From assembly GCA_010093995.1 (NCBI GenBank), contig ML992501.1, positions 764,227 through 828,226 of the forward strand: a stretch of DNA of 64,000 bases, read 5' to 3'. Positions within the stretch are counted from its first letter, which is position 1, and each line of letters starts with the position of its first letter. Shown piece by piece: positions 24,254-61,500 of the stretch. The notes under the pieces are model-generated. The model worked only from the letters and a program-made list of their open reading frames with translations. It did not search any database and was not told the DNA's origin. This DNA comes from Elsinoe ampelina (taxonomy: Eukaryota). The translations under genes and the position numbers were made by a program.

Positions 24254-24306
24254 TGACTCACTGCCTCCCCATGGCATTGAGTGTCATGCGCGTCAGGTGT
24301 GACTCA
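24254..24306. promoter_or_regulatory. Two TGACTCA (Gcn4/CpcA/AP-1-type) sites upstream of ECM31
   Basis: Exact TGACTCA at 24254-24260 and 24300-24306, about 190-245 bp upstream of the ECM31 start codon. Confidence 0.5.
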
Positions 24307-24419
24307 GTTACGCCCTGGGAGAGCGCGGATAGGTATGGTTTCCCGGGGAAGGATTAGTGAGCCTCGTAAGATTTTCTGACGCGCTGCCCCGGAGCTTGAG
24401 CTTTGGATGGGACTGTGAT

Positions 24420-24560
24420 TGTTGTAACTGGCAAATCGGATCGAGAGACGTGTGTTTCATTCAGTGAGTTACAATAACCGATTATCTACTATGTGTGTGC
24501 TGACTCATTAGTACCAGTTCTTTAGTACCAGAGAAGCTGTACTAGTCCTCTATTACAACA
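24420..24560 (-). repeat. Copia 3' LTR (141 bp)
   Basis: Direct repeat of 38398-38538 with 8 differences, all transitions. Confidence 0.95.
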
Positions 24561-24929
24561 CTCCCCCTCTAGTATAGGTTGTTAAAGCTAAAGAACTGCC
24601 TGTTACATATAAGTAAAGTAATTAGGTTATTACTTTATCTTATTATAATTACTTATAATTATTAGTGTTAGCTAATTATTAGTAAGGGTTTACTATTAGT
24701 CTAGCTTATAGTTGTTAATAACAATAGTAACTATTAACAATAGCTAGGCAGCTATTGTTCTATTGTTCTATATAAATAAACTAGCTTATAAATCTTAACA
24801 AGGGAGATATAAGTATCTAGCTAGCTCCTTTATAGTTTCTCCTTTCTTTATTATACTTTATAGTAGTAGCCTGTCCTTTTATACTCTACTTTTACCCTCT
24901 TACTATACTATATCGATAATACTTACATT

Positions 24930-25957
24930 ATAAGCGCTATAGTATAGCAATAGCTAGGCATTAGTAGTATTACTACTAGTACTAGTGCTCTAGGTAGTCT
25001 ACTAGGTAGTAGAGGTAGTAGTAAGAAGAAGAATTCTTTATTAAGGTTACCTAGTACTTCTAATATTAACTATAACACTGCTATAAGATTAATTACTCGT
25101 CTTAATACTCTTAGTAAGTAGCTATAAAGTATTAATAGCACAAGCTAATATTAATAGCCTAATTAACTTAGACTTTAACTTAGTAGTTAGTAGATATAAT
25201 TTAGAATACTCTTCTTAGGCTTAGGATAATTAGTTATTATAACTATACTAACTTATATCCTATCTAGAGGTCTATAGCAGTCTAGGCCTTTAGTACCTAT
25301 AGTGTATACCTAGTAGTTACTAATTCTATTCTAGTTAAGGATCTAACTAAGTAAGTTAACCTTACTAGATCTACTAACTACTCTACTACTTTAATAGCTT
25401 CTAGTGCTACTAGTAGAGTAGTCTACTATAGTACTAATCGCTATACTAAGTGTTAGAGATCTAACTCTAGTAATAATTAGAGTAAGAGTAGAAGTAGTAA
25501 GTTTAGTAAGTATATTACTTTACCTAGTTAGCTTAATAAGGCCTACACTTACTATACTTATAGTAACTAATATACTAGATGTTCCTTAGCTAATTACACT
25601 TTAACTCTAAGACCTGTTAGCTCTCCTAAGCCTATAAGGACCTCGAGTAGCTTAAGAGTTATTACCTAGCCTATTCTATATAGCCTAATATACCTACTAA
25701 TAGAGCTCCTAAGGTCTACCTCCTTTAGTAGTACTTTACCTTAGAGATTCTTACTAAGGGCCTATATGCTAGAGGCATTATTAGATATAGTTAACACTTT
25801 AATAACTTATACTAACTCTTACTACTTTATTATAGTCCCTATAAACTTTATAGATCCTACTAACCTAACTACTACTAAGGTTTATAACTTAGCTACTATA
25901 GTAATAAACTATATAGTAGAGCTTATAAGGATTATAGCTACTAGCTACCCTAGTTAG
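24930..25957 (+). pseudogene. RIP-mutated, intron-containing accessory gene antisense within the Copia (CxxC..CxxC protein)
   Basis: Lies between the end of pol (~26320) and the 3' LTR. Intron-like GTAAGT..GCTAAT..TAG at 25114-25157, with further CTAA(C/T)..TAG acceptors at 25267, 25578 and 25835. One exon contains tat-agt-gta-tac (CxxC after reverting G>A) and tat-act-aag-tgt. The last exon coincides with the 3' part of ORF 25766-25957. Exact exon joins not fully resolved. Confidence 0.55.
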
Positions 25958-28336
25958 CTTTCTCCTATTTATGCCTTTATACTAGGCCTAGTACTAATAA
26001 GGTATAGTAGGTCTAGATCTAATACTTCTATAAGGTCTACTAGTAGTAATAAGGGGAGAAGTTCTCCTTCTATAAGGAAGTAATTTAAGGTAGAGAATAG
26101 GTAGAAGTTATTAAAGATAATAATAGTATTAAGTAGTAGATATAGCTTAGGTATAAGTAGCTAGTAATAAGGTTATAATAGCTTTTCCTTTTTCTCTTTT
26201 TAGTTATAAAGTAATTTACTTTAACCTTTAGATAAATAAGATAGCTTAATAAGTAGTAGTAGCATAAATAATATACTTAAAATAACAATACATATAAAAT
26301 CTAAATAAGTATATAGTATAGATATACACTAAGTAATTAGCCTTTACTAATTAATTAAGAATCTTATTAGGAGACTTAGGCTTTATAAGTATATTAGCTA
26401 ATTACTAAGTTATATTAATATACTTAAGCTTAATTACTCTAAGTTTATACTACTCTCTATAGTAGTAATTCCTTAAATTAATATACTTAGATCTCTTTAA
26501 ATTAGTATAATCTCTTATAAGTTTAATAGCTAATTTATTATTAATAAAGACTATAGTTAGACTAAGGTAGATATTAGTAAGTAGTCTAAGTTTAATAATA
26601 AGATTTCTTAACTAGTTAATCTCCCTATAGGTCTTAGTAAGGGTAAGGTATTTAGCCTTAGTACTTAATAATACAATAATCTTCTATAGCCTTAACTTCT
26701 AGATAACTAGTGTACTAAGTATATAGATAATAGTACTAGATATAGATCTTATAGTTAATCTATCTCTAGTAAAGTCTAAGTTAGAGTAGGCCTTAATTAT
26801 ATTAACTAATAGTCTACTAGTCTTCTTAAAAGTTAAACCCTTTATAAGAGTCTTATTAATATATCTCTAGATTTGTTTAGCTATAACTATATAGGATATA
26901 GTTAGATTCTAAAGGAATCTAGCTAGGTAGTTAGTAGTATAGCTAATATTAGGCCTTATATTATTAGCTAGATACTATAGTTTACTAATAATTCTATTAA
27001 ATATCTTATAGTATTAAGCATTAACTTAGCTATTAGTTAGTTTATAGAGTTAATTAATAAAATACTTTATAGTTCTTACTTAGTAAAGATTATAACCTTT
27101 AAGCTTTTCCTTTAAGTAGTGTAATTACTTAATCTTAATTATGTCCTTAGTTCTATAAAGTTAAATACTAAGGAATAAGTTTAAGTTTATAACCTTTATT
27201 AGAAACTTAAGGTAGAGGTCTTTAACTAGCTTATTAGTATACTTCTACTTAGTAGCAATAATCCTAAAGTTATTAATATATATAAGAACTATATAGTACT
27301 TATTAATAAAGAGGTAAGTATTACTATAGGACTTAATAAACCTAAGTAATAGAAGTGCTTTAACTATAGAATTATACTAGAGGGCTATAGCTTACTTAAG
27401 CCTATATAGGCCCTTTATAAGAATAATAAGCTTATTCTACTTATTAGGAATTAGTATACCTTCTAGATAGGAGATGTAGTTTTTAATATTAATATCTAGT
27501 CTAAGGAATATAGTAATAGTATCTACTATTATAATAACCTAGTTATAGTAGAGAGTATATACTAGAATTACTCTTCTAGTTTTAGCTTTTAGTATTAGTA
27601 TAAAGGTTCTAACAAAGTTAATACCTTACCTTTAGGTAAAGCCTCTTATAGTCTAGCGAGCCTTATATCTTTTAACTTTACTATTAGTAAGTCTCTTAGT
27701 CTTAAAGACCTATTTGTCTATTATTAGCTTAATACCTCTTAGTGCTTATAATTTCTTAATAATTAGAAAGGTTTTAGAGTTAGTTAGAGCCTTCTACTCT
27801 ACCTCTATTATAGCTTACTAGTAATAACCTTTAGGAGAGAATAGTATATCTCTTACTATTTGTAGGTCTAGCTTAAAATTAACAGCTATAGATCCAATAA
27901 TCTTACTATTATTAAGTTTCTTATAATTAATCTAGCGATATATTCTAAGGGACCTTCTAATAGTTTCTTATAGTAAGAGAGATCTCTTCCTTTTACTAGT
28001 TAGAGGTTATATATTAAATAGTATAATAAGGAAGTTAATATCCTTATTCTATATATATATTAGTAGTTAATTAACATTAACTATAGGATTAAAAGTAAAG
28101 TATAGTTTACTAATAACTTTAGGTAGTAGTATTATAAGGTCTTTACTTTTATAGTTAGTATTATTAGGTTACTTAGTAGGTTACTCCCTCTATTTATAAA
28201 TAGGTTAGAGATCTATTTAGGAGCGCTAATATTAAGGATGCTCCCTCTGTTCTTTAATAGGGGTAGGTAATTGTTTAGGGGTTATAGAGTAGTTAGGGGT
28301 TAGCTATTTAGCCTAAGTAGTTTATAGGTTCTTATA

Positions 28337-28534
28337 TGTAAGAACTAACGTAGTAAGTATACTACGCTAGCTTACCCCGGAGATACTATTCTCTATAGAA
28401 GAATAAAGCACTCCTCGCCTATAGAATAGATAGAGTAGAGATTAGTCTTACGACAATCGAGGGTATACTAGTGTAATACCTATTCTACTCCGGTGTACTT
28501 GTCTTTCTAGCTCTAATATCCTATCTTTGTTATA
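28337..28534 (+). repeat. Gypsy-1 5' LTR (198 bp)
   Basis: Direct repeat of 35432-35629, differing by transitions. Confidence 0.93.
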
Positions 28535-31500
28535 ATTCTAATCTCTCTTATATCCTATTAGATAGAGCTATATAGATAAGATAGTACCCCGTACTTAGCG
28601 CTAGTAAAACGACTAACTACTACTAGAGTAGTACTAGTATAGATAACTCTCTAATAGCTTAGCTATTAGCGAGACATTTACTAAATTAGCTATAACTCTA
28701 GAGATAACTCCTATTAAAGATCGCTAGGCTAGGGAAGGCCTAGCGCTAAGACTACACTACGCTAATATAGCTCCTATAGGAAGTATAGCCGACACAGGAA
28801 ATAATACTATATACAAAGCACTTCTTACTTATATCGCTTAGCTCAAGAATACACTTAATAGTTACTCTCTAGTTATAGCACCAGTACTACGTAGTTGTTT
28901 TAACAACATATAACTCAACAACATCTACCTAATAAACCTACAAATCGTAAGAGAGTATATACTAAACTTATACTACCCCGAGACCTTAGAGTCTACTATT
29001 ATAGTAAGAGTTAAGGAATTTATACACACGTATAATAACGTCTTTAAGATAGCGCCAAACATCTACTATAAAGAAGTTACTTAGTACTATATAGCTACTA
29101 GCTACTTAAAAGGTTAGCTTAGCTACAATTAGGACTTATATACTAAGAGCGCTAGTATTATACCCTTATAGAGCCTAATATAGTTCTAGCTTTAGGACTA
29201 AGCCTAGAGTTCTAAAAACTATAGTAATAGCTACGTAGTAAAGTTCTTTACGTCGTACTAGTATAGAGAATAGTTAATTACTAATTTCTATATGTTCCTT
29301 AATAGTTATAAGTTCTATATTAAGATAGCGCTACTCCTAAATAACGCCTGCTATATATAGCTTATTACCTATACTACGCCGGAGCTATACTTAAAAGCAC
29401 TCTATTAGAGGAACCTACCCCTAATTAAGGTAGAACTCCTAGTACATCTATCCTGTTTAGAGTAGAACCTACTAGGCTACTTCGACCCTATATAGAGGCA
29501 GTATAAGTGTAACACTAAAGAGAAGACTAATACTTTTACTAAAAGGCCTCGCTATAACGAAGACTATAAGGGCTAAAAGGACTAGTAGAGTAGCGCTAAC
29601 GCTACCTCTATAGCCCCTTAACCTAGCGCTACTTACCCTTATAACATCTATAAGAGCCTAGACTATTAGGCGCTAAACTATCTCTAGAAGGACTCTTTAA
29701 AACGGATAGTGTCCTTACGTTTACTAATCCTAAGTAGCTCTAGCATAATATAGAATATATACTAAATTTGCGCTAATATTATAGTTAACCTACCTAAAGG
29801 CCCTATCGAAGAAGTAGCTCTAATAGATAGTAGCGCTAATAGTAACTTTATTAGCTAGTATTTTACTATACGCTATTATATTACTATTAACCCCCTAGTA
29901 GTATACTAAGTACGTAGCTTAGATAAATATAAATTAACTACCTATAGATATACTAAGTTAGCCTTAGCTATTAAGAATAGTAAAGGAATAATATAGGCGT
30001 TACGCTAGTAGTTTAAAAGCGTTAATATAACTAGTTATAATCTTATATTAGGCCTACTATAGCTATTGTCCTATAACTCTAAGATTTAGTAGAGCGCTAG
30101 TACGTAGAGGCATTATACTAGCGCTATATAGGTGTTAATTCTAGATGTACTCTTCTTCTCCTAGGAGCTAAATTAGCCTAACGCTTAGCTCTACTAAGTA
30201 TATATATGCCGGGACGAACTTAGCGCTCTAACTCTACTATACTAGCTTAATAACTACGTAGATGTTTTTAATAAGAGCGTAGTAACAGCGCTACTAGGTA
30301 ACAATTTTACTTACTCTATCGATATTAAAGAGAGAGAATAGCTACTCTAGGGACCTATCTACTCCCTTAGTAAGAAGAAGCTTTAAGTACTTCGAGAGTA
30401 TATAGATAATAGCTTAGTAACGAGTTAACTCTAGCATAGTACTAGCTCTATAGAGTCTTCTATTCTATTCGTTCCTAAGAAGAATAGTTCGCTATATCTA
30501 TATATTAACTATTATAGGCTAAATAATGTTACTATTAAGAACTATTACTTCTTACCTCTAATTACTAAGATACTTAATTACATCGAGGGCATATACTTAT
30601 TTAGTAAGCTAGACCTTATAGATACCTACTATAGAGTACATATCTAGCGTAGTAATAAATAGAAGATAGCGTTCCGCTATTGCTATAGCTACTTCGAATA
30701 TACTATTATACCTTTTAGCCTTACTAATGCCCTAGCTACGTTCTAGGCTTATATATATTAGTACTTAAGTAGCTTAGTAGACTACTACTATATTATGTAC
30801 CTAAATAACATTCTAATCTACGCTAGCGACAAGCAAAAGTATCGCTAGGCTATTAGAAGCGTACTAGACCACCTATATAAGAATAGCCTCTATACAAAAC
30901 TAAAGAAGTATATCTTTAAGGCAATATAGGTAGCATTTCTAAGCTATATCGTTAGTAGCAATAGCGTTACGATAGAGTAGCCCTAGGTGTAAGCTATTAC
31001 TAACTAGCCTACTTCTACTAGCCTAAAGGAGTTATAAACCTTTCTTGAATTTACTAATTTCTACTATTAATTTATTAAGAGCTTCTCCTATATAGCGCTA
31101 CTACTAACTATACTTATACGAGAGTTAGTCTAAGAGAAGTAAGTAGGCCTATTTCTATAGAGTAATAACGTAGCGTAGGCCTTTAATAGGCTTAAAGCTA
31201 CCTTTACGTAAGTGCCTATACTACGCTACTTTTTAGTAAGTAAGCCTCTCTAGCTCGAGACTAACGCTTTAGATTTTATACTCTCTAGAGTAATCTCCTA
31301 GTAAAACAAAGGCGATACCCCTACGTAATACTAGTACTCTATAGCGTTCTAGTCCCGGAAGCTATAAGGTATAGAACTAAACTATACTACCTACGATAAA
31401 GAGCTTCTTACTATTATAGAAGTAGCACGGTACTAGCGCTAGTACCTACTTAGCGCCGCTACCCCGATTAAAGTCCTCTTTAACTATAATAACCTTAGGT

Positions 31501-33901
31501 ATTTCCTAACTACTAAGAAGCTTTTATAGCGCTAGGCCTACTATGCCGAGGTACTAGCGTAGTTCGATATTGTTATCTAGTACTATAGTAGAAAGACTAA
31601 CCTAGCTAATAGCCTATTATATAGGCCTAACTACTATAAGTATAAAGAAGGTACATAGAAAGAGCGCTATATATTAGTTCCTCTCTTAGAGTAAGTATTA
31701 TAAATACGAAGTAAAGGAGTTACACCTATATCTATTATAGACAAGAAACCTAAGGCTAGTAAGGCCTAGGAAGATAGTAATAAAGCTAGTATAGCTTATA
31801 TGTCTTAAACTACTCCCTAACGTAACGCGCTTATACAATTCTAGTATGCCTCTAGAATAGCGCCTATAAGTTTACCTATTACCTTAGGAGTGCTATAGCT
31901 ATACTAAGAAGAGTTAGAGCCTCTAGAGTAAGAAGAGTAGTACCTAGAGAGTACTTATATAAACCTTTCTCTAAGCCTAACTAGTAATATCGAATTAAGA
32001 CAATATATGCCTACTCTAGTATTCTAGAACGTGCCGCTACTTGCCTAGGAAATAATAGAGAGCTAAGAGTATAAAGACGGCGTAATACCTATATAACTCC
32101 GGGACACCTCTAGTAGAAAGCCTACTATAATTTTAGACTAGAGTCGGCAGATTACGCGCCTCTATACTATATAAGTACTAGTAGATAAGACTATATACAC
32201 CTCTTCTACTTCTATGTTACTCTAGGACCTTGTCTATATAGTATAGTAAAGGGACGCTTTTACTTATAGTAAGAAATAGAAACTTCTAAAAGAGAGAACC
32301 TCGACTAGTAATAGTACTACCCCTAAGTAAAGCCTGTCTAGTAATAGCTTACTCCGGAACGGAAATAGAGTATATATTCTAGAAGAAACTACCTTAAGAG
32401 TAGAGCTTATATAGCACAATTATAATAACTCCTTAGAGAGTTACTTTAGCTATATAAAGACCTATCTTAATATAAGAAGGAAGTACTAGTAGCTAGGTAT
32501 ATCTATCGCTACGAAAGTGTATATCGAGCGCTACGATAGCTACTAAAGGTATAAGGTAATGTAGTATAAGCCTTATAGCCTCCTATAACTCTTGCTAATT
32601 CCGCCTATACTCGAGGCCTTATAACACTAGTTACTTAATTTTATTACTAGCTTACCCCTAGTAGAGCTCTAGCCTAGCGTCGTTATAGATGCAATTATTA
32701 TATATATCTATTACTTGTCTAAGTTTAGTATCTATACGCTAATGTTAACTAAGCTTAATACTAGAGACTTTACTAATCTATTTAAAACAGATATTATAAT
32801 ATAGTTCGGAACGCTAAAGACACTAGTCTTAGATAGAGAATCTATCTTTATAAGCAAGTTCTAGAGTGCGCTATACTAGCGCTAGAAGGCATAACATAAG
32901 CTTAGTACTAGTTTCTATCTATAGATAGATAGCTAAACTAAAAGGCAAAACTAGACGCTAGAGTAGTACCTATATTACTTTGTCGACTATTACTAGACGG
33001 ACTAGCTATACTAGGTTAAGTAGGTACAATTTATGTATAATAATACGTATTAAGCGTTACTATACGCTACGCTAGTATAGTTCTTATTTACGTAGGAGAT
33101 ACGCCTACCTAATAACATCGAGGCGCTAGCGCTACCTAGCTACGCGCTAGTATATAACTTATTAGTTAATAACTAAGTATAATCTATTACCGAAACGCGT
33201 ACAGAGCTTACTTAATACCTACGTAAAGCATAGAAAGACTAAGCGCTAGCCTATAATAGAGATTAATAAGTAAAAGTCTTCTATAATAGCAACGAGATTA
33301 TACTTAGCACTAAGAACCTTCGTAGCGCTAGACCTAGCTATAAGCTATTAGCTAAGTATATTAGCCTATTTACAATTATATAACGAATTAGTACGTAGGT
33401 ATATAAGCTACGCTTACTAGACAAAATAAAGCTAATCTATAACGTCTTTAACGTCGCGCTACTAGAGCTATATAAGCGTAGTAAGGGCATATACCTACTA
33501 CTCCTAGAGGTAGAAGGGCAGGAAGAATATATTATTAAATATATTCTTAGTAAGGGCTATACTAGCACCTCGAAGGCGCTATACTACCTAGTAAAGTAGT
33601 AGAGTTACTCTATAGAAGAAAGTATATAGAAGCTAGTAAAAAACCTTATAAACGCTAAGGAATTACTATATAAATACGAGGTAGCTTAGCGTAAGTATAG
33701 CGCTAGCTAAACACTCTAGACACACTTAGGATTAATAAGTTAAAGGCACAAATCTTAAAGTAAAGAGTACCTAGGTATAGCGCTAGGTTAACTCGAGGTA
33801 TTATTAGCTTATATAGTAAAAACGCTAGCGTAGCAAAAACTATAGAATTATACTAAAGCAAAGGGGGTATAGTATAGGCGTAGTGCCCTAGCCTCCCTAC
33901 C

Positions 33902-34772
33902 TTAACTATCTATATTATCTACCTTAGTCTTATCCTTATTATTCTCCTTAACACTATTAATATACCTAGTTAGCGCCCTTATAGCGTTGTTAATTACCTA
34001 CGTAGTAGCGGCTTACTTGTTCTTAGTAACTACCTATAAGAAAGTTAGTATAGCTTAGGCGTTATAGAGGCGCACTTCTAGACTTATATAACTAGCTAAA
34101 GCCTTAAGTATAAAGCTAGTATTACTAATTATACCTAGGCGTAGCGCCTTTACTAGCTACTTAGTATCGCCTTTAGAGGTAGAGAGCGTAGCGATAGTAC
34201 TATTATAGCGTAAAGAAGTTATACTATTACTATTACTTTTATTAACTACTTTACTCTTGCCCTTAGCGTTAGACTTACTCTATGTATATTTAGCGCTAGC
34301 CTTCTCGTATATATAGTTAGTATAGATAGTAATTCGGCGCTTTAGAAGAATAATATTCTTCTTAGAAGTAGTAGCATCGTTATAGATTAGTATATATATA
34401 GTAAAGTATTTGTCCTAGAGCTTCTTAGTAGTAACTTAATCCTTAGAGTCGAGCTTAGTAGGCTACTAAGGTTAGTATAAAGTAGGTGTAGTATAGGTAT
34501 AGAGTATACCTAGTAGTAGTGTTTATTACTATAACTATAACAATTATAGTAGGTAGCCTTAGCCTTAGTAATCTAGTAGAGAGAATTCTTAATAGAGAGT
34601 ATACTATCTTCGAGCTAGAGGTGCTTATCGATAGTAATAGCGTAGTGTAAGTATAGTATAGAATACTAGTCCTAGTTAGTAAAATCGCTCTTATAGGGGC
34701 TATAAAAGGTTAGCGCTAGCGTAGCGTAAGTACTATATATAATACTTACTCTTTAGGAACTTTAGGAGCTAT
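33902..34772 (-). pseudogene. RIP-mutated 4-exon antisense accessory gene in Gypsy-1 (~239 aa, Cys-cluster protein with acidic tail)
   Basis: Exons 34772-34750, 34699-34510, 34462-34088 and 34033-33902 total 720 nt with compatible phases (2,0,0). The three introns have GTAAGT / GTATAC / ATAAGT(<GTAAGT) donors, CTAAC branch points and TAG acceptors. All internal stops are TAG/TAA, revertible to CAG/TGG/CAA. Confidence 0.75.
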
Positions 34773-34912
34773 AGTTATTAAAGTACGTAAGTGTATAGAA
34801 GGTAAGCTAGTATAGAGCTAAGATAATAAAAAGGAAAAAAAAATTACTACGTAGGTACTATACTAGGTTAGTAAATAAATAACTAAATAGATAAGCCCGA
34901 TAGCTAAATCTA

Positions 34913-34954
34913 TAGTAGCGTAGGCTTAGTATATATACTAAGCCTACGCTACTA
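34913..34954. repeat. Perfect 42-bp palindrome
   Basis: tagtagcgtaggcttagtatatatactaagcctacgctacta equals its own reverse complement. Confidence 0.9.
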
Positions 34955-35431
34955 GCCTAAGGGCTAGTAAGGCCTAGTCTATACTATATAGTACCTAAAA
35001 TAGATTACTAGTATAGTATTAGACTTATATAAGTATAGAGCTAGCGTTAAGTAGGATACTTACGCGAAGAAAGTATTATAAAGGAGAAAAGAAGAAGAGA
35101 AGGAAAAGAGAAAAATATATATCTAGCTCTAAGCTAAGCCTAATCCGGAGAATAATAAGTAGTAGTATATAATAATAGGTAGATCCTTATATATAAAGAT
35201 AATAATATAAGAGCGCTATATTTTATATATAAAGAATTATACTATTATTACTATATCTAGTATACGAAGAATAGTATAGACTACTATAGGCGCGCTATAC
35301 GCGCGAAGAGTATACTATACCTAAGAGGCGCTAGCGAGACACTCTTTTCTAGTTTTCTCCTATACTAGGTTTTTTAAGTTTTATTAAGGCTTATAGGCGC
35401 GAGGGCGTGCCCCTTAAAGAGGAGAAATAAT

Positions 35432-35629
35432 TATAAGAACCGACGTAGTAAGTATACTATACTAGCTTACCCTAGAGATACTATTCTCTATAGAAGAATA
35501 AAGTACTTCTTACCTATAGAATAGATAGAGTAGAGATTAGTCTTACGACAATCGAGAGTATACTAGTATAACACCTGTTCTACTCTAGTATACTTGTCTT
35601 TCTAGCTCTAATATTCTACCTTTGTTATA
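35432..35629 (+). repeat. Gypsy-1 3' LTR (198 bp)
   Basis: Direct repeat of 28337-28534, followed by TSD TTATA. Confidence 0.93.
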
Positions 35630-38397
35630 TTATAACTAAAGAGTAGTTAATTGCCTTAGTAATAATTACTACTAAATGTCTACTTCCCCTAAAGCTATAA
35701 AGCCTTAGGTTGTTATACCTATAGGATATATAGTTATTAGATAGGTAGTATTACTTAATCTTTATAGACTATACCTTTATTAAAGGTAATATAAGGTAAT
35801 ATTAGAATCTTTCTCTTCTAGGCTTATTAAGTATAGTACTAATAGAGCATCTAGATAAGGTAGTTAGTTTTAGAGTTAGGCTATATTCTAATATGCTATC
35901 TAAGTAATGCTCTAGCTTAGAACTTATATAATTTAGAAATATATTAGTTATAGACATAGGCTCTATAGCTAAAGCGTCTAATATAAGTTAATAAGACTAG
36001 TCTATTATTATTAAGAAGATCTTTCTTTAGTTCTTATATAGGGATCTTCTTAGTTTTCGTATAAGTAATTCTATTACTAATATAGATTATAAACTCTACT
36101 AATAAGTACTAGAGTTTAAGGGGTGCTCTATAGTTAATAAAGATATATCTTATTCTAAGAATAATAGCTTTATTAGTAGCCTTAGACTCTCTATTTTAAT
36201 ATTAAGTATTAGGTGTAGAGATATTCTATCTCTAACTATTAAGTTAAATAGCTATTACTAGCTTATAGTTCTTAAATTTACTACCTCTATTAGAGATAAA
36301 GATAAATAATAGCTTATTATAGGCTATATAGTTCTTAGTGTAAATAGCCTTAATAGCTGCTAAGGTATTACTCTTTAGGAGAAGAATAGTAATAAACTTA
36401 TACTTACTTTTACTATATATTATAAAGAGAAGATACTTATAGCCTTTACTTAACTATAGCTTAATAGGACTAATAAGGTCTAGATAAAGCTTATCTAGTA
36501 AGTATTTTAGTAAATCCCTTAGCTCTCTTAATACTACTCTTTATACTTTTAATATAGTATATAGTTTATAGTAGCTAAGATCTAATATTTAAAGTTCTTC
36601 TAATCTAATAGCTTAACTTTTAGTAAGGGAGAGAATAGTGTTACTAATATAGCCTAACCTCTAGTACTATCTTTCTAATATTAGCTTTTAAGTAGTTATA
36701 ATAGCTAGATTTACTCTTATAGCCTATAGCTTCTATAGTTTTAGCCTTATAGGTAATTTCTTATAGTTCTAAGGCTTATAGACTTTAAAGTTCTTAAGCT
36801 ATTTAACTCTTTTAAAGTGTTTAATAAGGCTAACTTCCTTTCTATCCTTTATTAAGGATTTACTAACTATAAAGATACTAAGTTCCTCTTTATTCTAAAG
36901 ATTAAATATAAGAGTATTTAGTAATAATAGTAAGTATATATAATTATAAAGCTTAATAATTAACTTCTTACCTTTACTATTAGTTAGAGTAAGCCTAACT
37001 ATACTAACCTCTATATTAAGTAGTTTCTTTATACTAATAGCTTATTTAAATTTAAGAATACCTTTATATTCTTTAATTATTAAGAACTATAATCTGTCTT
37101 TAATAAAGTGCCTTAATATACTAGAGTTATAGATTACTCTATTTTAACTATATATTAATAATAATAATAATAATATAGATATAGCTACCTTAGTATAAAT
37201 TAATCTAATTATATTAATATTACTATTAGAGTACTTATCTAATTCTCCTACCTTAGTAGGTTCTCTAGATTCTTTAATAGTAGCTTAACTTTTAACTTTC
37301 TTAGTCCTTAACTTACTACCTCTACCTTTAGCTTTAGTGCCTTTATTATTTAACCTACCTTTGTTATTCCTCTTATTTTAATTCTTTAGTACTTTCTTAG
37401 AGTGCTACTTAAAATAATCTATATTAGAGTAGATATAATAAGTATACTAAGTATATTAATCCTTAATATAACTAGCTACTCTATAGATAGAGTTTAGATT
37501 AGTTCTTCTATTATATAGAGGCTTTTATATTCTAAAAGAGCCTATTATCTCTTTAAGACTCTTCTTATAGTTAAGGCTAGATCTCTAGCTCCTTAACTAT
37601 TTAGTAGTCTCTATTTCTATAATAAACATAGTCTTAATATAATATAGAGGGAGCTTAAACTTATCTAGTTTAGTACTAATAGTGCTTACTCTTTACTCTA
37701 TAGTAATAGTATATTAATAATAGTACTTTATAAAATCTTTATAGTACCTTTAGGTGTTATAACTTGTTATAACTACCTTATTAAGGTTATAGATAGCTAT
37801 ATATAGCTTATATAAAACAACAGGTTTAAATATAGCTTTAATAGTGTCTAGAAGTTCCTTTAAAGTCTTCTAAGTTATACTATAGTAAGGTCTAATAGAT
37901 TTATAAATCCTTATTATAATAATACTATAAGTAATTCTATTATTCTTATACTAGGTCTTATTTCTAACTTTATAGATTGTCTTAGTGCCTTTACTAGTAT
38001 TAGGGGCTAGTTCCTTAGGCTTTATAACTACTAGTATCTAGTTAATACTATAGATTATATATCTAAGTATATCCTTTTTAAGGAGGGCTACCTTAAGGGT
38101 TAATCTCTAAGTATTATAGTTGCTTTCTCTCTTAAGAATCTAAGTCTTAAGCATTTTTGCTAATCTAGACATAATAATAGTAATTAGCTAAAGGCCTATT
38201 AATTTAATTAATGTAATTAGCTTATTTAAGCTATTTAAGCTATTTAATTAAAGGGTTAATATAGGCTACTACAAGTGTTTGTCTTAATATAGCTAGTCTA
38301 GAATTTAGTGTAGGCAGCTTGTTAATCCTTTTTAATAATGACATACTTAATTTACTATAGCTTTAAGTGCTTTTAAAGAAGCGCCGGGCTTATAACC

Positions 38398-38538
38398 TGT
38401 TATAACTAGCAAATTGGATCGAGAGACGTGTGTTTCATTCAGTAAGTTACAATAACCGATTATCTACTGTGTGTGTGCTGACTCATCAGTACCAGTTCTT
38501 CAGTACCAGAGAAGCTGTACCAGTCCTCTATTACAACA
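38398..38538 (-). repeat. Copia 5' LTR (141 bp)
   Basis: Direct repeat of 24420-24560, followed by TSD GTGAT. Confidence 0.95.
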
Positions 38539-38755
38539 GTGATTCCCGCGGGCCGAAAAAAAGGGTCTGCGAAATGGAGGGGCCGAGGTCGACCGGTGGT
38601 CGAGATGCGAGGGTGCGCAGATGGGTCGGGCGGGTAGCGGCGGCTTTGGACATGGCATGTGAAGATGGGAGGAATGAGTGACTGCATAATCAAAGTATGT
38701 ACTGCTACTGCTGCCTTACCACGTATCCAATCTCGTCGCCATCCAAGCATCCTCG

Positions 38756-54003: not shown

Positions 54004-56341
54004 TTAGCCGGGCGCAGGTCCAAAGCTGTTGTCCCAGGAGAAGTCCTGCTGTGGGAAATTGAACAGCGTTGGATCTTGAGCCTCGCCCGTGTTGAGCAGG
54101 GTATCCCAAGCGCTCTGCAAACTGTCAGCAAGGATCAAGATGGCCAGCAGCGATAGCTCTCACCCAGTCTATAGTTGCAGTCACATCGTTCATCGGGGTG
54201 TCAAAAATATCGTCAAAGGAGACATTGTCAAATCCTGCATGTGCTCCATCACCACCAGATTGTATCGAGGAGGTTTGGAAAGCAGGTCCGACAGTCGTGG
54301 TACTCATTTGTGTAGGCACTTGATGTGCATCACGTGGAGAGTCGCTGCCCATCATGGCAGGTACAGTCCGTTTGAGCTTGCTTCCACTCCGACGACTGCC
54401 AGGGTGTTCTGTCTGAGATCTGGATTGCTCAAGTAGGTGCGATAATGCTTTTGCGGCTCGCCGAGCTTTCATTGGTGCTCGTTCCCAATTGCTTCAGATT
54501 TCTGTCGATTTCTCCAGGGCATCCATCATAGATTTTCGCTCTTCCTGAATGCTCGATTCTGGTCCATCCGACTCTGCCCTGTGCTTGCTATGAGAGAGCT
54601 CAACCCCAACGACAATACCCCCCAAGATGAAGCAGTCCATACAATCCCGTATTTGCTGGTAATGGATGGATTCGAGTTGTCCGCCCTCCCAGATAGCCTC
54701 ACCAAGGACGAGATGGATGTTGACGATCTCAAGTGCGGCTCCGAGACATAGCTTTCTTTCAAGATGATCTGTCGTGCCAAGATGGCGTCGGAAAAGGACG
54801 CAAATGTTTTCAGACGGAACAATTCCACCTTGATTCGCTCCATGATCAATTGTGTATCACCGAATGATTGATCAAGTGACTTCATGCGAAATATGCTTGG
54901 CGTATCCTCATGGATTCTTGTGAGTTGAGCATTTAGCTTATGAGCTATGGCAGGGTCCGGTCGGTCAGAAGAGTTGGATAGTGATACAGCCTCTGCGAAT
55001 ATAAGTATCATGTGGCCCATGATAATGCTGGATGCGATGAAGGTCTTCTCCGACGCCGGCCGCGGTGGTGGGAGATGCTCAGATTGTGTAGAAAAGTCCG
55101 AGTCTTCCAGGTTGAGTGGCATGGCCGTGTTTGCTTGTAGCGCCCGGATGACACTAACGAGTCCGATCTGATAGCTGAAGATGATATCCAAGTGGCAGAT
55201 GGCTAACCAGATCCTTCGCCGAATCTCTGCCACGAAAGGTGTTACATCAGAGCGGCCACCAGCATCGCGAAACATTCCCATCCTCGTTGCGAGACGAGTG
55301 ACAAGTCCAAGCTGTAACCATAACTTGAGCTGATCGGCATCACTCTTAGTCTGGCCGTACCTGATCAACAATATGAGAGCTTCTAGGAGGTAAAATTTTG
55401 GCCGGGCATAGTCAGCAAGGATGACAGCATGCGTAGCCATCTCGTGGAAGGTCTCTCCAGGGTGGGGCTCCGATGACTCGGGAGGTGATTTACGTGAATA
55501 CTGATCGCCTAGCGCGAGGATGTCGAAGAGGACGGCGAGCCAAACTGGAGAGGCTGCTGTGGGATTCTCCCAGAAGGCAGTGTACTACGACCATTAGTCT
55601 CGTTAGTGGGTACTGCGCAACTGCCCACTTGCCTGCTGCTGGAAAGTCGGAACATGCACAATATCTCGCAAACGATAAGCGCGGTTCAGAGTAGATGTTC
55701 AATGAACTTACACCTGTACGTGTCACAGGACATGAAGAATGCTGCAATCAGCTTGTCACAAGTTTCGCTGGAACATAGGCGAGCAAATCATCCACGGTGT
55801 ATGCACTGGGCCCAGGGAAAAACAGATCAGGTGTCCCTCGGCTTCCACTAGAGGTGGTAGGCTGGGTCAAAACTCCAGGGAGGGTGGAGGAAACCACATC
55901 GGGGTCGTCGTCAAGATGAGTCTTGATCTCGGCAATTTCGTTGACAAGGCTCTCCCAGTGAGCTGGACCGACGAAAGCAGTCTCACTGTCTGTAATCTTC
56001 AGGCGGCCCTGCGAACCCGTGGGAGGTTGAGAAGAAGTATCGCTAGACTGGTCTGCAGTGGACGGAGTTGCAGCTTCGGCAGCCTTGTCAACTCTGGTCG
56101 TGATGCCTCCGAGATCTTTTACCATCTGCTCAAGACTATCCAGTCGCCTTCGCATGGCCTGCGATTGCGACTTGTAGGCCAAGGATTCTTGCATTGAGCT
56201 CGAGTAGACGCATTGAGGCTCGCGAGACCTTCGTACACATTCCCGACACGGTAGCGCCCGGTCGCATCGTAATTTGCCAGTCCTGCATGGTTTGCAGCTT
56301 TTCTGCGGACGCTGGCGGCGTTTAATTTCATTTTGACTCAT
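54004..56341 (-). pseudogene. Zn(II)2Cys6 fungal transcription factor, apparently disrupted
   Basis: SCKPCRTGKLRCDRALPCRECVRRSREPQC zinc cluster and Fungal_trans region (RMGMFRD..EIRRRIWLAICHLD). Needs frame changes near 55770 and 54805 and read-through of a TGA at 54494-54496. Confidence 0.8.
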
Positions 56342-56367
56342 GGCACATGTGTGAAGGACAAAGGAAG

Positions 56368-58072
56368 TGTTGACTTGTGTGGGGGAGGAAAAAAGGATTA
56401 ATTACTGCCTAAACCACCAAAATGAGGTAGATTATAACTACATAAATACTTAACCTGGTATACTAAAAGATAGCTAAATCAAAAGAACTTCTTAATAGTA
56501 GCAGATTAAGACAATAATTATCTAATTTAATTATAGATTAGTAAAATAGTAAGATAGTGTTTAGTTTAACCTTGGGATAAACTAAATCAGGGTCTTCTTA
56601 GCGCTCTAGCTTATACCTCGGTTAATATACCCCTTTACTAAGTAGCTATAACTCTATAATAGCTAGTTAGTAGACTACTAACTCGAGGGATAGCTATTAT
56701 AAGAAGGCCTTATACCTCCTAGGTAGTAATAATTTAGTAAATCCATTAGCTAAGATATCTACTAATAGTGTCTATATAACTAAGATAGGACTAGATAGAT
56801 CTCTAGCTTAATTAATCTCTTGTTTTAGCTAATAATAATAAATATTAATATAGTAAAGATATATATTTAGCTTCTTAATTAAAGTAGTAATAAGACTAAT
56901 AGTTTACTAATTATTATACTAAATACTAACATGTTTAAGGGGATAGATAAAGGCTATTAGCCTCCTCTACTACATAGCTTACTTAGTAGTCTCTATAAGA
57001 GTAAGTAGCTTAGCCTCTATAGTTAATATTATAACTATTAATTACTTTATAGCCTTCTAGTTAATTAATCCTTAAAACATCTTAAAGAGATAGCCTTAAA
57101 AGCTCTTCCTTATTAGGTAGCTACTAAAGCTAGTATCTAATAAAGCTTAAAAGATTAGTAGTAGTATTAAGCTATTAAAGGTAAGAGCTAAATTCTTAGT
57201 TTTATAGAAATATTAGATTACTCTATTTACTATCCTCTAGTAAGTTAGTAATAGATTTATTAGATGCTCTAACAATCTAGAAGTAGTAAAGGCTATATTA
57301 GGCCTTATAATAACTACTACAAAGTTAATAGATTCAACCTTTTACTAATATAAGTAGATCTCCTATAGTAATACTTAGCCTTTATAAGGTTTAAGTATCT
57401 TAATTAGTAGTAGTATTAACACTAGCCTTATTAGTTCTATAATAAACTTACTATATATCTATTATATATACTAGGCTTAGCTAAGCTAGAGTCTCTTTAT
57501 TAGTCTATCCCTTATAACTTAGATAGCTAGAAACTAGCTTAGATCTTTAAGCACCTTTATCTTATATTTAGTATAGAGAGCTATAATAATAGTATTAGCT
57601 TTCTCCTTATACTTCTTAAGATATATAATAGTAATATTATCTATAAAGAAGAAGATTATTACTTTAGGTATTATCTAGAGGTATAGAGCCTTAGAGGCTT
57701 AAGTAAATCTAATACTCTTTAGAGTAGTAGTAAATTTAGTATACTAGAGAGCTAGGGCTTACTTTAGGCTATATAGTGCCTTATTAAGCAATAAAATTGC
57801 CTCTAATAGAGTAATACTAGGATAGTCCTTTATAAGATTCTCTACTACTAGCTTAAATCTAGTAGGGATAGTATAGTAGGTAGTCTTATTAATAGAACTA
57901 TTAATATAAGTATTAATAACATCTATCTAAATAGCCTTTATATCTTTATAAGTAAGTAATACTATAAGCATTCTAAAGATCTTAGCTACTAGAGTTACTA
58001 TATAAGTCTTAGATTCTATTAATTAAAGATTACTTCTTATATAGACTTTTACTTTATACTTTATAACCTTTC
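56368..58072 (-). mobile_element. Second Ty1/Copia element (3' part: RT, RNase H, probable 3' LTR), RIP-inactivated
   Basis: Minus-strand degenerate K.K..VRGDLQ (~58030), IIFFFVDD-like (~57645) and ADGFTK (~56745). Reversed purine tract cccctt at ~56630. Left boundary uncertain (tgttgac 56368 .. gttaata 56627 would be the LTR). Confidence 0.8.
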
Positions 58073-58535
58073 TATTACGAACTAGTAGGACAGCTAGAAC
58101 GTAGGGACGTTAGGACCAATTAAGCTACTAAGATTATTACGTGACCTAGCCCGACATTTACTTAGTTCTCTATCTTCTCTAGTAGCTCTACCTCTAAAAC
58201 TATAGAGCGCATAGGTTACTAGTAGACGTGTACTCTGTATTACTCCTAACTCTTACTATAGAGTATATAGAGCACACAGAGAACGTAATAGAGAATATAT
58301 ATATATAGGAACAGTTCTTACCTTATGTAAGTACTATAGTTAACCTTGTCTAGATAGTAAACACTAGTATTACTAAGGCTAGCCTTTGTAATACTATCTA
58401 ATTGTACTTTATTATCTATAAGATATACCTTCTCTAACTCTTACCTTAGTGCTATACTACTATAGAAGTAGAACTCTCTTATTCTTAGCTTAGCTTAGAC
58501 TACTAGTGTAGACTATATTTAGATAGTTCGTAACA
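58073..58535 (+). repeat. Gypsy-2 5' LTR (~463 bp)
   Basis: Terminal inverted repeats tattacgaact (<tgttacgaact) and agttcgtaaca. The partner LTR lies outside the window. Confidence 0.75.
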
Positions 58536-61500
58536 TTTTAACTACTCTTACTATAGCATAGTACATTACAAGGTTAATAAGTAACTCTTGCTCTAAGTTA
58601 CTATTAGCATCTTCGATCGCTAGTAAGCTAGAAAAGCTTACTATTAATAACATGTCTACTACTAGTTTAACCTCGGGTAAGTATAGAAGGTCTTTTAGTA
58701 TAGAGGAAGGACAGAGTAAGCCTAAGTTAGAAGTAGAACTCTTTTATAGGGACCGCGCCTACTTAAGGCGCTTCCTTGTTTAACTTAAAGCCTTTTTTGC
58801 TCTAGAGAGGAATAAGTACGCTAACAACGCAGTAAAGGTCCTCTATGCTAGGATACACCTTAAAGGCGCTACCTTCGGGTAGTTCGAGCCTTATATAAGT
58901 AGCTACCTAGATAGATAACTAGGCCTAGATATAAAGGCTATCTTTAAGAGCTTTAGTATCTTCTAGGCAAAGATTAAGTAAGTCTTTAATATATCTAACA
59001 AGGAACGTATCGCTATAATAAAGATCTAACAATTATAACAACGTAGGTCTATAGCCTAGTACTATTCCTAGTTCTAACAACTCGTAATGTACCTAGACTA
59101 GAACAATAGTACTAAACACTTAGTATTCTATTAAGGACTAAGTAACTTAGTTAAAGACTAAATAATACTTAAGCTGCCTAATAGCCTTTAGGAACTAGTA
59201 GACACTATAATTACTATTAATAACAGACTTTACAAACGACATATAGAACGTTATAGAGAATATAAGGTAAATACTAGATATACGTATTCCTCCCGAAACT
59301 ATAGAGACCCTATAGAACTTAATACTATACGTAAAGGCTGCCCCTTATAAGTATAAGGCTATAGCTATAGAGGAAAGTTCCTTAGTAGAAAAGAGAGAGA
59401 GAAGTACAGACGAGATAATCTATATTTTAAGTATAAAAGACCTAGGCATCGGGCTAGAGACTACTAATAAGGGGCGCTAGCTAATAGATTATATATAATA
59501 GTTACTAGGCTAGTAGAGAAAAAGGCTAACACTACTAAAAAAGACCTAACGACCTTTAGCGTAGGTAAGGAAATATAGAAGGGGTCTATAACAACTTAAG
59601 AGGTAATAGAATCCTCTCTAGATGTTATACTTAATATCTCTACGACTAATAGCGAATAACAAAGTTAATACGTAATACTATTATAGATAGTATATTATAA
59701 TAACTCTTATTATATTTACTTATTAGACAAGTAGGGATCTAGTTAGTTCCTATATAAGCTATCTAAGCGTAGGCAACTAACAAAATAGCTAGACTAGGGG
59801 CTTAACCTAGAAAGGCACTCTATAATTAGTAGTAACATTAACTAACCTTAGAAGGTAGTTAGTAACAATTACTAATATATAATTATTAAGATAAAGTATT
59901 AAGACACGAGTGCTATATAACAATATAGTAGCCTTACCTTTAGCCCTTATAGCGAACTACAAGGAAAGGTATATTATATGTTGCTCTAGAAATATACAAA
60001 TTTAGATTATAAATAGTACTATACTATCTACTTATACGATGTACTTAGAGAAGACGCTATTAGTCTTAAATACACTATAGACTTCTCGGTAATCGAGATA
60101 GGTAGTACTATTCCCTATAGCTAAGTAAGAGAATATACTTAGTATAGCCTTACTAATTATAACTACGCTAGAGGTAGTAGCAATAAAGAGGAATATAACA
60201 AAGAATACACTAAACAACTATAATATAATAACATAGATAAGGACTTATCTAACAATAATAACGACGTACTACTATTAGGCGAATAACTTAAAGTATACCT
60301 TATAGGGATATAGAGGAATTATATAATAATATACACCTACTACTAGAATAGGATATAATAAGACAAATCTATATAACTTGTTTTTGTCTTTAATACTAAC
60401 GCCTAGCTATACCCGGAAGGAATAGTTATACCTATATAGGTGTATAACACTACTTAGTGTAACTAGTAGAGAATTATTAGACTTTATAGCTACTAAGGGA
60501 CTTAGGCGCTAGAAGTTTACCTTACTATATTAAATAGCGACAAAACACAACTTGTCTAATAGATATAGTACTAATAGTAGATACGTGTAGGAAGGGATTA
60601 GCTACTTATCTAAGGAGCTACAATGACAAAAAACTAGCTAGTTGTTACCTAATAAGGTAAGACAATAATACTAGCTAAAGCCTTAATATAATAAAGATCT
60701 ACATGTTAAATTACTTTATACTAGAAGTCTAGATATAAGAAAACAAGGTAAGAGCAATAATAGATTTAGGAGCTAACTATAGCTACGTCTCTATAATAAT
60801 TACTAATTAGCTTAAACCTTATTAACATTAGAAGGAGTTACCTTACCTACTTACTATAGCGGATAAAACCTTTATAGGGAAGAATAGAAAAGTTACTTAG
60901 AAACTACGAAACGTTATAATCTAAATCGAAATATATACGGAAAAACAATTAATTGATATAGTTAATATATAGTACAATATAGTACTTAGTATAGACTAGC
61001 TATAATAACATAACCTAGACGTAGACTAGATTAAAGAAACACTCGAATTTTCTAAGTGTAATTATAGAATATAGAGAGTATAATTAGCTCCGCGGATACT
61101 AACTATAAGGACAGTATAAGTACGACTAATAGTTAGAGCTATTACTAGCGTAAGTAATTAAGCACTTCCGCTAGAATATAAAGACTTTAAGGACTTATTT
61201 AAAGAAAGAGAAGGTATCGTAGCCTTACTCTAATATAAACTATAGAATTACGAAATACCTTTTAAAGAGAGTAAATCCCTAATATACTATTAAGGTCTTA
61301 TACTACTATCGAAACAAGAGAAGAATATCCTTAAGAACTATATCGATAAGTACTTACTTAAAGGATTTATACAACTATTAAAATTACCTATTACACACGA
61401 AGTGCTTTTTACACCAAAAAAGGATAGAACATTATAAATATATATTAATTACTAGAAACTTAATACACTTACTAGGAAGAATTACTATTCCCTACTAAGG

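Follow-up and report, generated by a model that had tools for sequence, protein, structure and literature searches.

The window analysed here, 64,000 nucleotides (nt) of the Elsinoe ampelina genome (assembly GCA_010093995.1, contig ML992501.1, positions 764,227 to 828,226), holds a complete Ty1/Copia retrotransposon that lies on the minus strand, is mutated by repeat-induced point mutation (RIP) and is split by a nested Ty3/Gypsy element. Between the end of pol and the 3′ long terminal repeat (LTR) of this host Copia sits a relic protein-coding gene on the strand opposite to gag-pol. This conclusion is supported by a three-base periodicity in purines and pyrimidines, by depletion of stop codons and by the asymmetry of stops between the two strands, which together support in part the plus-strand gene proposed for the spacer in the initial annotation of the window. 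The spacer probably represents the RIP-killed remains of an additional antisense protein-coding gene of the kind known as aORF-3R (aORF, additional open reading frame), here in a fungal Copia element: the coding sequence, at 25205–26083, is located between the pol end and the polypurine tract (PPT) and runs opposite to gag-pol. In the Elsinoe genome the gene is dead.

Coding signal in the spacer between pol and the 3′ LTR

The pol frame closes with the motif 'LANILIKP' (26378–26401, minus strand), a RIP-altered ADxxTKP at the end of RNase H, which was located in BLASTP alignments with two Copia polyproteins (P0001 and P0003) reaching query residue 653–657. Because these homologues continue for 16 and 41 residues past the ADxxTKP-like motif, which ends at nt 26378, pol is expected to end at ~26250–26350, and the spacer between the pol end and the PPT with its adjoining 3′ LTR measures ~1.7–1.8 kb. 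The alignments and the LTR repeat thus bear out the earlier placement of the pol end near 26320 and of the 3′ LTR ~1.75 kb further on.

RIP introduces only C-to-T and G-to-A changes, both of which are transitions, and therefore the purine or pyrimidine class of each base survives it. To exploit this property, we calculated the purine fraction by codon phase in 450-nt windows and drew a finer map from a 120-nt score for the RNY pattern (purine, any base, pyrimidine). Three-base periodicity was detected at 25169–26218 (p 2.6e-6 to 2.5e-3), and a second signal in a different phase at 24719–25168 (p 0.003). The periodicity fades and collapses over 25919–26518, between the open reading frame (ORF) and pol, and then returns in pol. 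In the RNY map, phase +0 prevails at 24950–25070 (score 0.28–0.40) and phase +2 at 25250–25550 and 25820–25910. Overall, codon periodicity extends over 24930–25110 and 25230–26080.

The core of the relic antisense ORF lies in plus-strand frame +2 at 25205–26083 and comprises 292 codons followed by TAA at 26081, with 10 internal TAA/TAG stops. TAA and TAG stops arise by RIP from CAA, CAG and TGG; all 12 stops of the core frame within 25262–26110 are of these two types, and no TGA occurs in any of the six frames across the spacer and the adjacent part of pol (24600–28336), where every stop is TAA or TAG. In nine consecutive 30-codon bins spanning 25289–26098, the frame (coordinate mod 3 = 2) contains 1, 1, 2, 1, 1, 1, 0, 1 and 1 stops, whereas the off-frames contain up to 11. 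The least interrupted 270-codon window of the spacer contains 9 stops, compared to 22.8 ± 2.5 (minimum 14) in 500 dinucleotide-preserving shuffles of the same spacer, none of which reached so low a number. Even the best 270-codon window of the genuine pol, with 13 stops, has more of them than the spacer. Tandem Repeats Finder (TRF) reported 9 short arrays, none longer than 42 nt and just 2 located inside the core, so that low complexity does not account for the core. Stop depletion and periodicity in purine/pyrimidine class are statistics that RIP cannot fake.

Since the reverse complement of RNY is again RNY, the periodicity by itself fits equally minus frame -1, which is also the frame of pol. 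Stops are more informative in this respect. In RIPed DNA the sense frame is expected to have fewer stops than its mirror, because RIPed Leu, Ser and Pro codons (TTA, CTA) read as stops on the other strand. In the spacer, 10 stops were counted in the plus frame, compared to 26–27 in the minus frame of the same register. As a control, we took 31 overlapping 270-codon windows from the two sense frames of the Copia itself, which contained 12–21 stops in the sense and 14–41 in the mirror frame; the sense frame had the lower count in 29 of the 31 windows, the same count in one and one stop more in the remaining one. No control sense frame had fewer than 12 stops. The stop asymmetry therefore identifies the plus strand as the coding strand, antisense to gag-pol.

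Structure and composition of the probable antisense gene

The gene probably begins at ~24930 with a short Ser/Thr/Gln-rich exon that is joined to the core through an intron starting from a donor at 25114. The candidate first exon (24930–25113, plus strand, frame +0, 61 codons) is of low complexity and is indicated by its RNY phase +0 and by its stop count, 2 in 61 codons versus 8 in the same-register minus frame. Both the start near 24930 and the low-complexity nature of this exon had been noted in the initial annotation and agree with the RNY phase and with the TRF rows (24965–24986 and 25004–25021) in the low-complexity stretch 24950–25030, which has a three-base rhythm. The initial ATA of the exon could be a RIP-mutated ATG. 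CT-rich tracts are marks of fungal promoters, and one such pyrimidine tract, read directly from the letters, lies just upstream on the plus strand (24830–24905); it lacks coding-like periodicity and may correspond to the core-promoter region. None of the sequencing runs listed as containing the stretch is recorded as RNA. Contigs of two sequencing runs guessed to be RNA (X4 and X7) match only the LTR (24420–24560) and, at depth 2, the piece 24735–24858, and have no bearing on expression of the gene. Their LTR matches carry unrelated flanks, which points to LTR copies in or near transcribed regions elsewhere.

The candidate intron (25114–25157, plus strand, 44 nt) consists of GTAAGT at 25114–25119, GCTAAT at 25144–25149 and a TAG ending at 25157. 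Judging from the sequence, the donor GTAAGT at 25114 is plausible. The length of 44 nt equals 2 mod 3 and shifts frame +0 to frame +2, matching the two coding-like segments, as would any other intron with the same remainder. Thus, of the intron originally proposed, the signals are in place and the donor is in the right phase, but the acceptor is ambiguous, with four alternatives (25190, 25193, 25277 and 25280) that fit the phase and remove most of the early stops. The initial annotation had itself raised the possibility that such splice signals are artefacts of RIP. GTAAGT occurs 0.7–2.3 times per kb per strand in RIPed DNA versus 0–0.2 in the GC-rich flanks, and because it is so common single splice-like signals mean little. 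Full triples of donor, branch point and acceptor, by contrast, are rare in other RIPed DNA (10 per ~39 kb of strand), and by a post-hoc estimate of 0.01–0.09 it is moderately unlikely that a triple in the right phase would arise by chance within the ~120-nt transition zone.

Beyond the first intron, where further branch and acceptor signals had been listed at the outset, three intron-like triples (25351–25397, 25497–25578 and 25506–25578) were rejected as introns, because all of them fall inside the one continuous frame at 25205–26083. Three of the four full plus-strand triples lie within this frame, and the lengths of these three, 47, 82 and 73 nt, are no multiples of 3. Pairs of introns with combined lengths divisible by 3 (47+73 or 47+82 nt) were likewise discarded, since they would place the middle exon in frame +1 with 8–11 stops per 30 codons. 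Nor does the gene end at 25957 as first delimited; this position corresponds to an in-frame TAG, after which the frame stays open for another 41 codons up to the TAA at 26081.

A putative CxxC..C..CxxC motif had also been assigned to the product. The codons on which it was based, tat-agt-gta-tac at 25298–25309 and tat-act-aag-tgt at 25442–25453, are indeed present and share one frame (plus, mod 3 = 2), but they lie 45 codons from each other, and the motif is no more frequent than expected by chance. The pattern Y/C-x-x-Y/C occurs 6 times in 292 codons compared to 2.9 ± 1.5 expected, with 64 of 1000 composition-preserving shuffles reaching 6, and other frames of RIPed DNA have 0–3.0 occurrences per 100 amino acids. 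Only two Cys codons survive in the core ORF, both within Y-T-K/R-C. The ORF resembles a Zn2Cys6 domain only in its two Y/C-x-x-Y/C patterns, which may derive from CxxC, whereas a Zn2Cys6 domain contains six Cys within ~30 residues. No Pfam match at E ≤ 10 was obtained for the ORF, exon 1 or the pol tail. A zinc-binding reading of the CxxC or Zn2Cys6 type, for which comparison with Zn2Cys6 domains had been suggested, is therefore unsupported.

The composition of the ORF (Ser 15.8%, Thr 11.3%, Lys 3.8%, Arg 7.5%) is unlike that of pol (Ser 4.6%, Lys 11.5%), and its translation is hydrophobic in the C-terminal half and ends in a tail rich in Arg and Ser. The surviving composition hints weakly at a basic, partly disordered protein; the hint is weak because Asn and Lys codons also arise from those of Asp and Glu by RIP. 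In the living family, the gene would have been transcribed against the genomic RNA from its own promoter, located in the ~370 nt between the PPT and 24930, and would have encoded a Ser/Thr/Arg-rich protein with the features just described; the antisense transcript may also have damped the element. An intron would survive in a retroelement only in antisense orientation, because the sense-strand genomic RNA cannot splice an antisense intron out, so that the combination of antisense orientation and probable intron is probably self-consistent. The same principle underlies the his3AI and neoAI antisense-intron reporters, in which a backward gene keeps an intron of its own orientation through the RNA intermediate. 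Those reporters are engineered, and the likeness serves only as an argument for the self-consistency of the layout. An accessory or regulatory role in the service of the element would be the most likely function, and we propose it tentatively; alternatively, the module may have been a passenger without function, or the antisense RNA itself may have had a role.

Family membership and alternative explanations

Contigs of a DNA run from the same organism (X1) that are at least 80% alike to the host Copia include 5259 pieces covering all 30 bins of 24300–28400. RIP-type transitions account for most of the differences, at 190 of the 207 listed places. In a second organism (run X3), contigs were found over 24839–25079, 25260–25817 and 25840–26437, the last of which spans both the ORF end and the pol end. 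We read these data as placing the module in a repeat family rather than as a private insertion of the Elsinoe copy, and most members of the family are likely to carry the module; the copies seen all show RIP. In one X1 contig, 24598 is linked to 26077 by 17 letters that resemble a less mutated 24598–24614. The copy it derives from thus lacks ~24615–26076, which is nearly exactly the module up to the ORF stop at 26081. A second X1 join links 24858 to 26102; one of its sides is short, and the join may be spurious. Both LTRs of the Elsinoe copy have T at 24465, where nearly all other family contigs (X1, X4, X7) have A; being a transversion, this difference is not due to RIP and marks the copy or its subfamily.

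Searches for relatives of the ORF gave the following results. In local Smith-Waterman comparisons, the ORF resembled neither any of seven Copia polyproteins (z -1.2 to 0.8) nor any of the six frames of the Gypsy 3′ region, the latter in agreement with the initial annotation, which had seen no obvious nucleotide similarity to the accessory gene of the Gypsy. A blastn search for sister copies within the window returned only compositional matches of 57–67% and there was no shared purine/pyrimidine 30-mer. In metagenome scans, a 27-nt LTR word had 0 matches, and of 242 pattern matches to the ORF protein 0 were confirmed. The best match in PDB, an acyl carrier protein at E 0.064, was dismissed. These negative results weigh little, because Pfam misses the integrase region of the Copia too, and because a positive control, the gag-integrase region of the Copia compared to the same seven polyproteins, was barely detectable (z 3.0 at best).

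A number of observations speak against an antisense gene with the structure and history proposed here, or temper the evidence for it. Phmmer found no homologue when the 353-residue read-through frame was compared to 1.84 billion representative sequences, including Elsinoe proteomes; its lone match (P0008, E 3.6e-5) is spurious, being a 1446-residue Ig-like repeat protein in which one 40-residue piece is matched once per repeat. The assignment of the strand is statistical and not a proof, and a purine/pyrimidine codon-class likelihood trained on pol is undecided on the strand (-0.73, 353 codons). RNY periodicity dips at 25640–25790. If the acceptor at 25157 is used, 5 stops follow in the next 15 codons, and because frame +1 is open across the putative intron (25094–25216), two small indels could replace the intron. 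The spacer bins are as deep in X1 contigs as the pol bins, yet summed contig depth is not the same as copy number. Finally, the accessory role is proposed by analogy.

Among the alternatives, the module may have been a passenger, that is, a fragment of another gene or transposable element, inserted in reverse into the 3′ untranslated part of an ancestral Copia copy, which spread with the family but played no role for the element. The X1 contig lacking ~24615–26076 indicates that forms with and without the module exist, the ORF differs from pol in its Ser and Lys content, and searches with RIPed sequence are too insensitive to exclude a degraded transposase or gag. On the other hand, the short form is represented by a single low-depth contig and looks more like a deletion derivative, while contigs cover the module as fully as they cover pol and the module is also found in a second organism. 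Furthermore, the ORF resembles neither the seven Copia polyproteins nor the Gypsy 3′ region nor any of the 1.84 billion representatives. A nested transposable element as the origin of the module was specifically considered and found no support: the module ends have no terminal inverted or direct repeats (an apparent 20-nt flanking repeat failed on alignment), and no similarity to transposon proteins was found, although the sensitivity of such comparisons is low after RIP. All considered, a passenger origin seems unlikely.

The two remaining explanations do without an antisense gene. Env-like third ORFs are known between pol and the 3′ LTR in plant Ty1/Copia Sireviruses, where they are on the sense strand, and the signal in the spacer might by analogy come from such an ORF or from a C-terminal extension of pol. 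Because of the self-complementarity of RNY, the periodicity fits minus frame -1, the frame of pol, equally well, and the codon-class test does not decide. Nevertheless, this frame has 26–27 stops versus 10 in plus frame +2, a situation not matched by any control sense window; the periodicity collapses between pol and the ORF (25919–26518), and the Copia homologues stop 16–41 residues past the ADxxTKP motif. Consequently, a sense-strand ORF is highly improbable. Similarly, the spacer might be a non-coding, AT-rich 3′ region, where RIP and low complexity have incidentally produced the frame, the splice signals and the Cys-like codons. RIP does inflate GTAAGT, CTAAY, TAG, TAT and TAC, the stretch 24950–25030 is of low complexity with a three-base rhythm, and no homologue was found. 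Yet none of the 500 shuffles reproduced the depletion of stops, periodicity in purine/pyrimidine class cannot be created by RIP, and the TRF arrays are few, short and mostly outside the core. We therefore regard a non-coding origin of the signal as very unlikely too, and favour the relic antisense gene.

Related systems and the host element

Antisense aORFs between pol and the 3′ LTR are described, in the part of PMC7264820 available to us, for maize Grande (gene23), rice RIRE2, Wallabi and Gran3, Silene Retand and Phaseolus PvRetro13. According to the same part of that source, most copies of a family carry them, and they lack clear matches in databases and are of unknown function; the aORF of Grande is transcribed from its own upstream promoter and its product is nuclear. 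The Copia ORF shares position and orientation with these plant aORF-3R genes, as well as the lack of clear database matches. It differs from them in that their hosts are plants and in that for Grande, alone among them in the part available, transcription of its own and nuclear localization are reported, whereas the Copia ORF is known from sequence alone. Outside plants, the same part of PMC7264820 cites brtn of Boty from Botrytis and Sclerotinia (Zhao et al. 2011), and a brtn ORF is also mentioned for BcGypsy1 of Botrytis cinerea in the available part of 10.1101/2021.04.13.439636. Like the Copia ORF, brtn is an extra gene without known function in a fungal LTR element, positioned between pol and the 3′ LTR and opposite to gag-pol. 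Boty is, however, a Ty3/Gypsy element whereas the host element is Ty1/Copia, no sequence similarity of the Copia ORF to anything was detected, and the Elsinoe copy is RIP-dead and apparently intron-bearing. The Sireviruses mentioned above also have coding sequence between pol and the 3′ LTR of a Copia element, but theirs is in the sense orientation, in which the Elsinoe frame is rich in stops; sense aORFs are also discussed in the available part of PMC7264820.

In our literature searches, we found no description of an antisense extra gene in a fungal Copia. The available text of an ascomycete Copia survey (PMC5445492) contains 0 occurrences of 'antisense', and its supplementary tables could list longer elements; fungal GalEa elements are described there with 'a large single ORF'. 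Antisense extra genes are known mainly from plant Gypsy elements, with Boty as the one fungal Gypsy case that we met in the portions of the literature at hand, and a Copia example from a Dothideomycete would extend their known range.

The nested Gypsy (28339–35629, plus strand; LTRs at 28339–28534 and 35434–35629), which encodes RVT_1, RT_RNaseH and SH3_Tf2-1 in a single plus-strand frame starting at 28536, also has a spacer of ~1.7–1.9 kb between the end of SH3_Tf2-1 (~33474) and its 3′ LTR (35434). Within it, 33780–34529 displays strong purine/pyrimidine periodicity (p to 3.9e-9) with the strand undecided (18 versus 17 stops), and 34460–34913 contains a stop-poor frame on the minus, that is antisense, strand (5 stops versus 27 in the mirror frame). 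It is plausible that the two spacers have the same layout. That intron-bearing antisense genes are a regular, independently acquired part of the LTR retrotransposons of this lineage, encoding an undescribed class of accessory proteins, appears rather improbable on the present data. If this were true, RIP would be hiding from annotation accessory proteins that might, for example, regulate the element or counter host silencing.

The method may outweigh the case. Purine/pyrimidine periodicity combined with stop asymmetry reveals frame and strand where similarity search fails, and genome-wide use of the two could bring to light cargo genes concealed within RIPed repeat blocks. For the gene itself, a dead copy of an orphan protein, the immediate gain for biology will stay modest as long as no intact relative has been found.

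The host Copia is flanked by a 5-bp target-site duplication, GTGAT, read directly from the letters at 24415–24419 (left) and 38539–38543 (right). Its 3′ LTR (24420–24560, minus strand, 141 nt, TGTTGTAAC...ATTACAACA) is a direct repeat, at 94% identity, of the 5′ LTR (38398–38538, minus strand); the LTRs end in TGT...ACA and thus bear the TG..CA ends of such elements. The PPT (24561–24570, minus strand; reverse complement AGAGGGGGAG) directly abuts the 3′ LTR. The orientation of the element is minus, because the PPT adjoins the 3′ LTR on this strand, and the match to the Copia reverse transcriptase RVT_2 agrees with it (PF07727, E 3.4e-17, ~27736–27076, minus strand, residues 201–420 of the frame starting at 28336). 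RVT_2 was the sole Pfam match among the 9 read-through frames tried. With RVT_2, RNase H following it and an ADxxTK-type motif closing pol, the element belongs to Ty1/Copia, and a word-seeded search with the read-through pol frame, in which 8000 candidates were scored, retrieved seven Copia polyproteins at 20–25% identity. The reverse transcriptase reads Y-I-N-N in place of YxDD, and the RNase H region R-P-N-I in place of RPDI. Between the pol end and the end of the antisense ORF, minus frame -2 has 63 codons without a stop (26090–26276), including K-K-R-K-R-K; this stretch is in a frame other than that of pol, has weak periodicity and could be a frameshifted pol tail or chance.

The 5′ interior of the Copia (35630–38397, minus strand), where the leader, gag, protease and integrase are located, is heavily RIPed and gave no Pfam match, and is recognizable as a stop-poor frame -0 with 12–18 stops per 270 codons versus 14–41 in the antisense frame. 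The sequence following the 5′ LTR (38370–38397, minus strand) reads GGTTATAAGCCCGGCGCTTC... and matches neither the hairpin site CHSeq1 of fungal GalEa nor the FunCo1 primer binding site, as quoted in section 10 of PMC5445492, the available section in which the ADxxTKP motif is also named. Assignment of the host Copia to the fungal GalEa clade was rejected on this ground.

Across the window, GC-normal blocks (~50–60% GC) alternate with AT-rich blocks (23–36% GC) at ~24570–38400 and 56000–64000. The AT block containing the Copia bears the signature of RIP: TpA/ApT is 1.8–2.7 and (CpA+TpG)/(ApC+GpT) 0.11–0.18, compared to 0.49–0.64 and 1.22–1.36 in the flanks. The corresponding values for the spacer are 2.31 and 0.17. 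The Copia LTRs are less RIPed than the interior (GC 0.41–0.42 versus 0.25–0.32), as expected if RIP spares very short repeats. The second AT-rich block (56000–64000) is also RIPed and contains other repeats. No purine/pyrimidine 30-mer is common to this block and the Copia interior, and the block hence carries no copy of the host Copia family. A flanking ORF of 982 amino acids is 93% identical to a J-domain protein of Elsinoe batatas, and its next matches come from other Elsinoe species.

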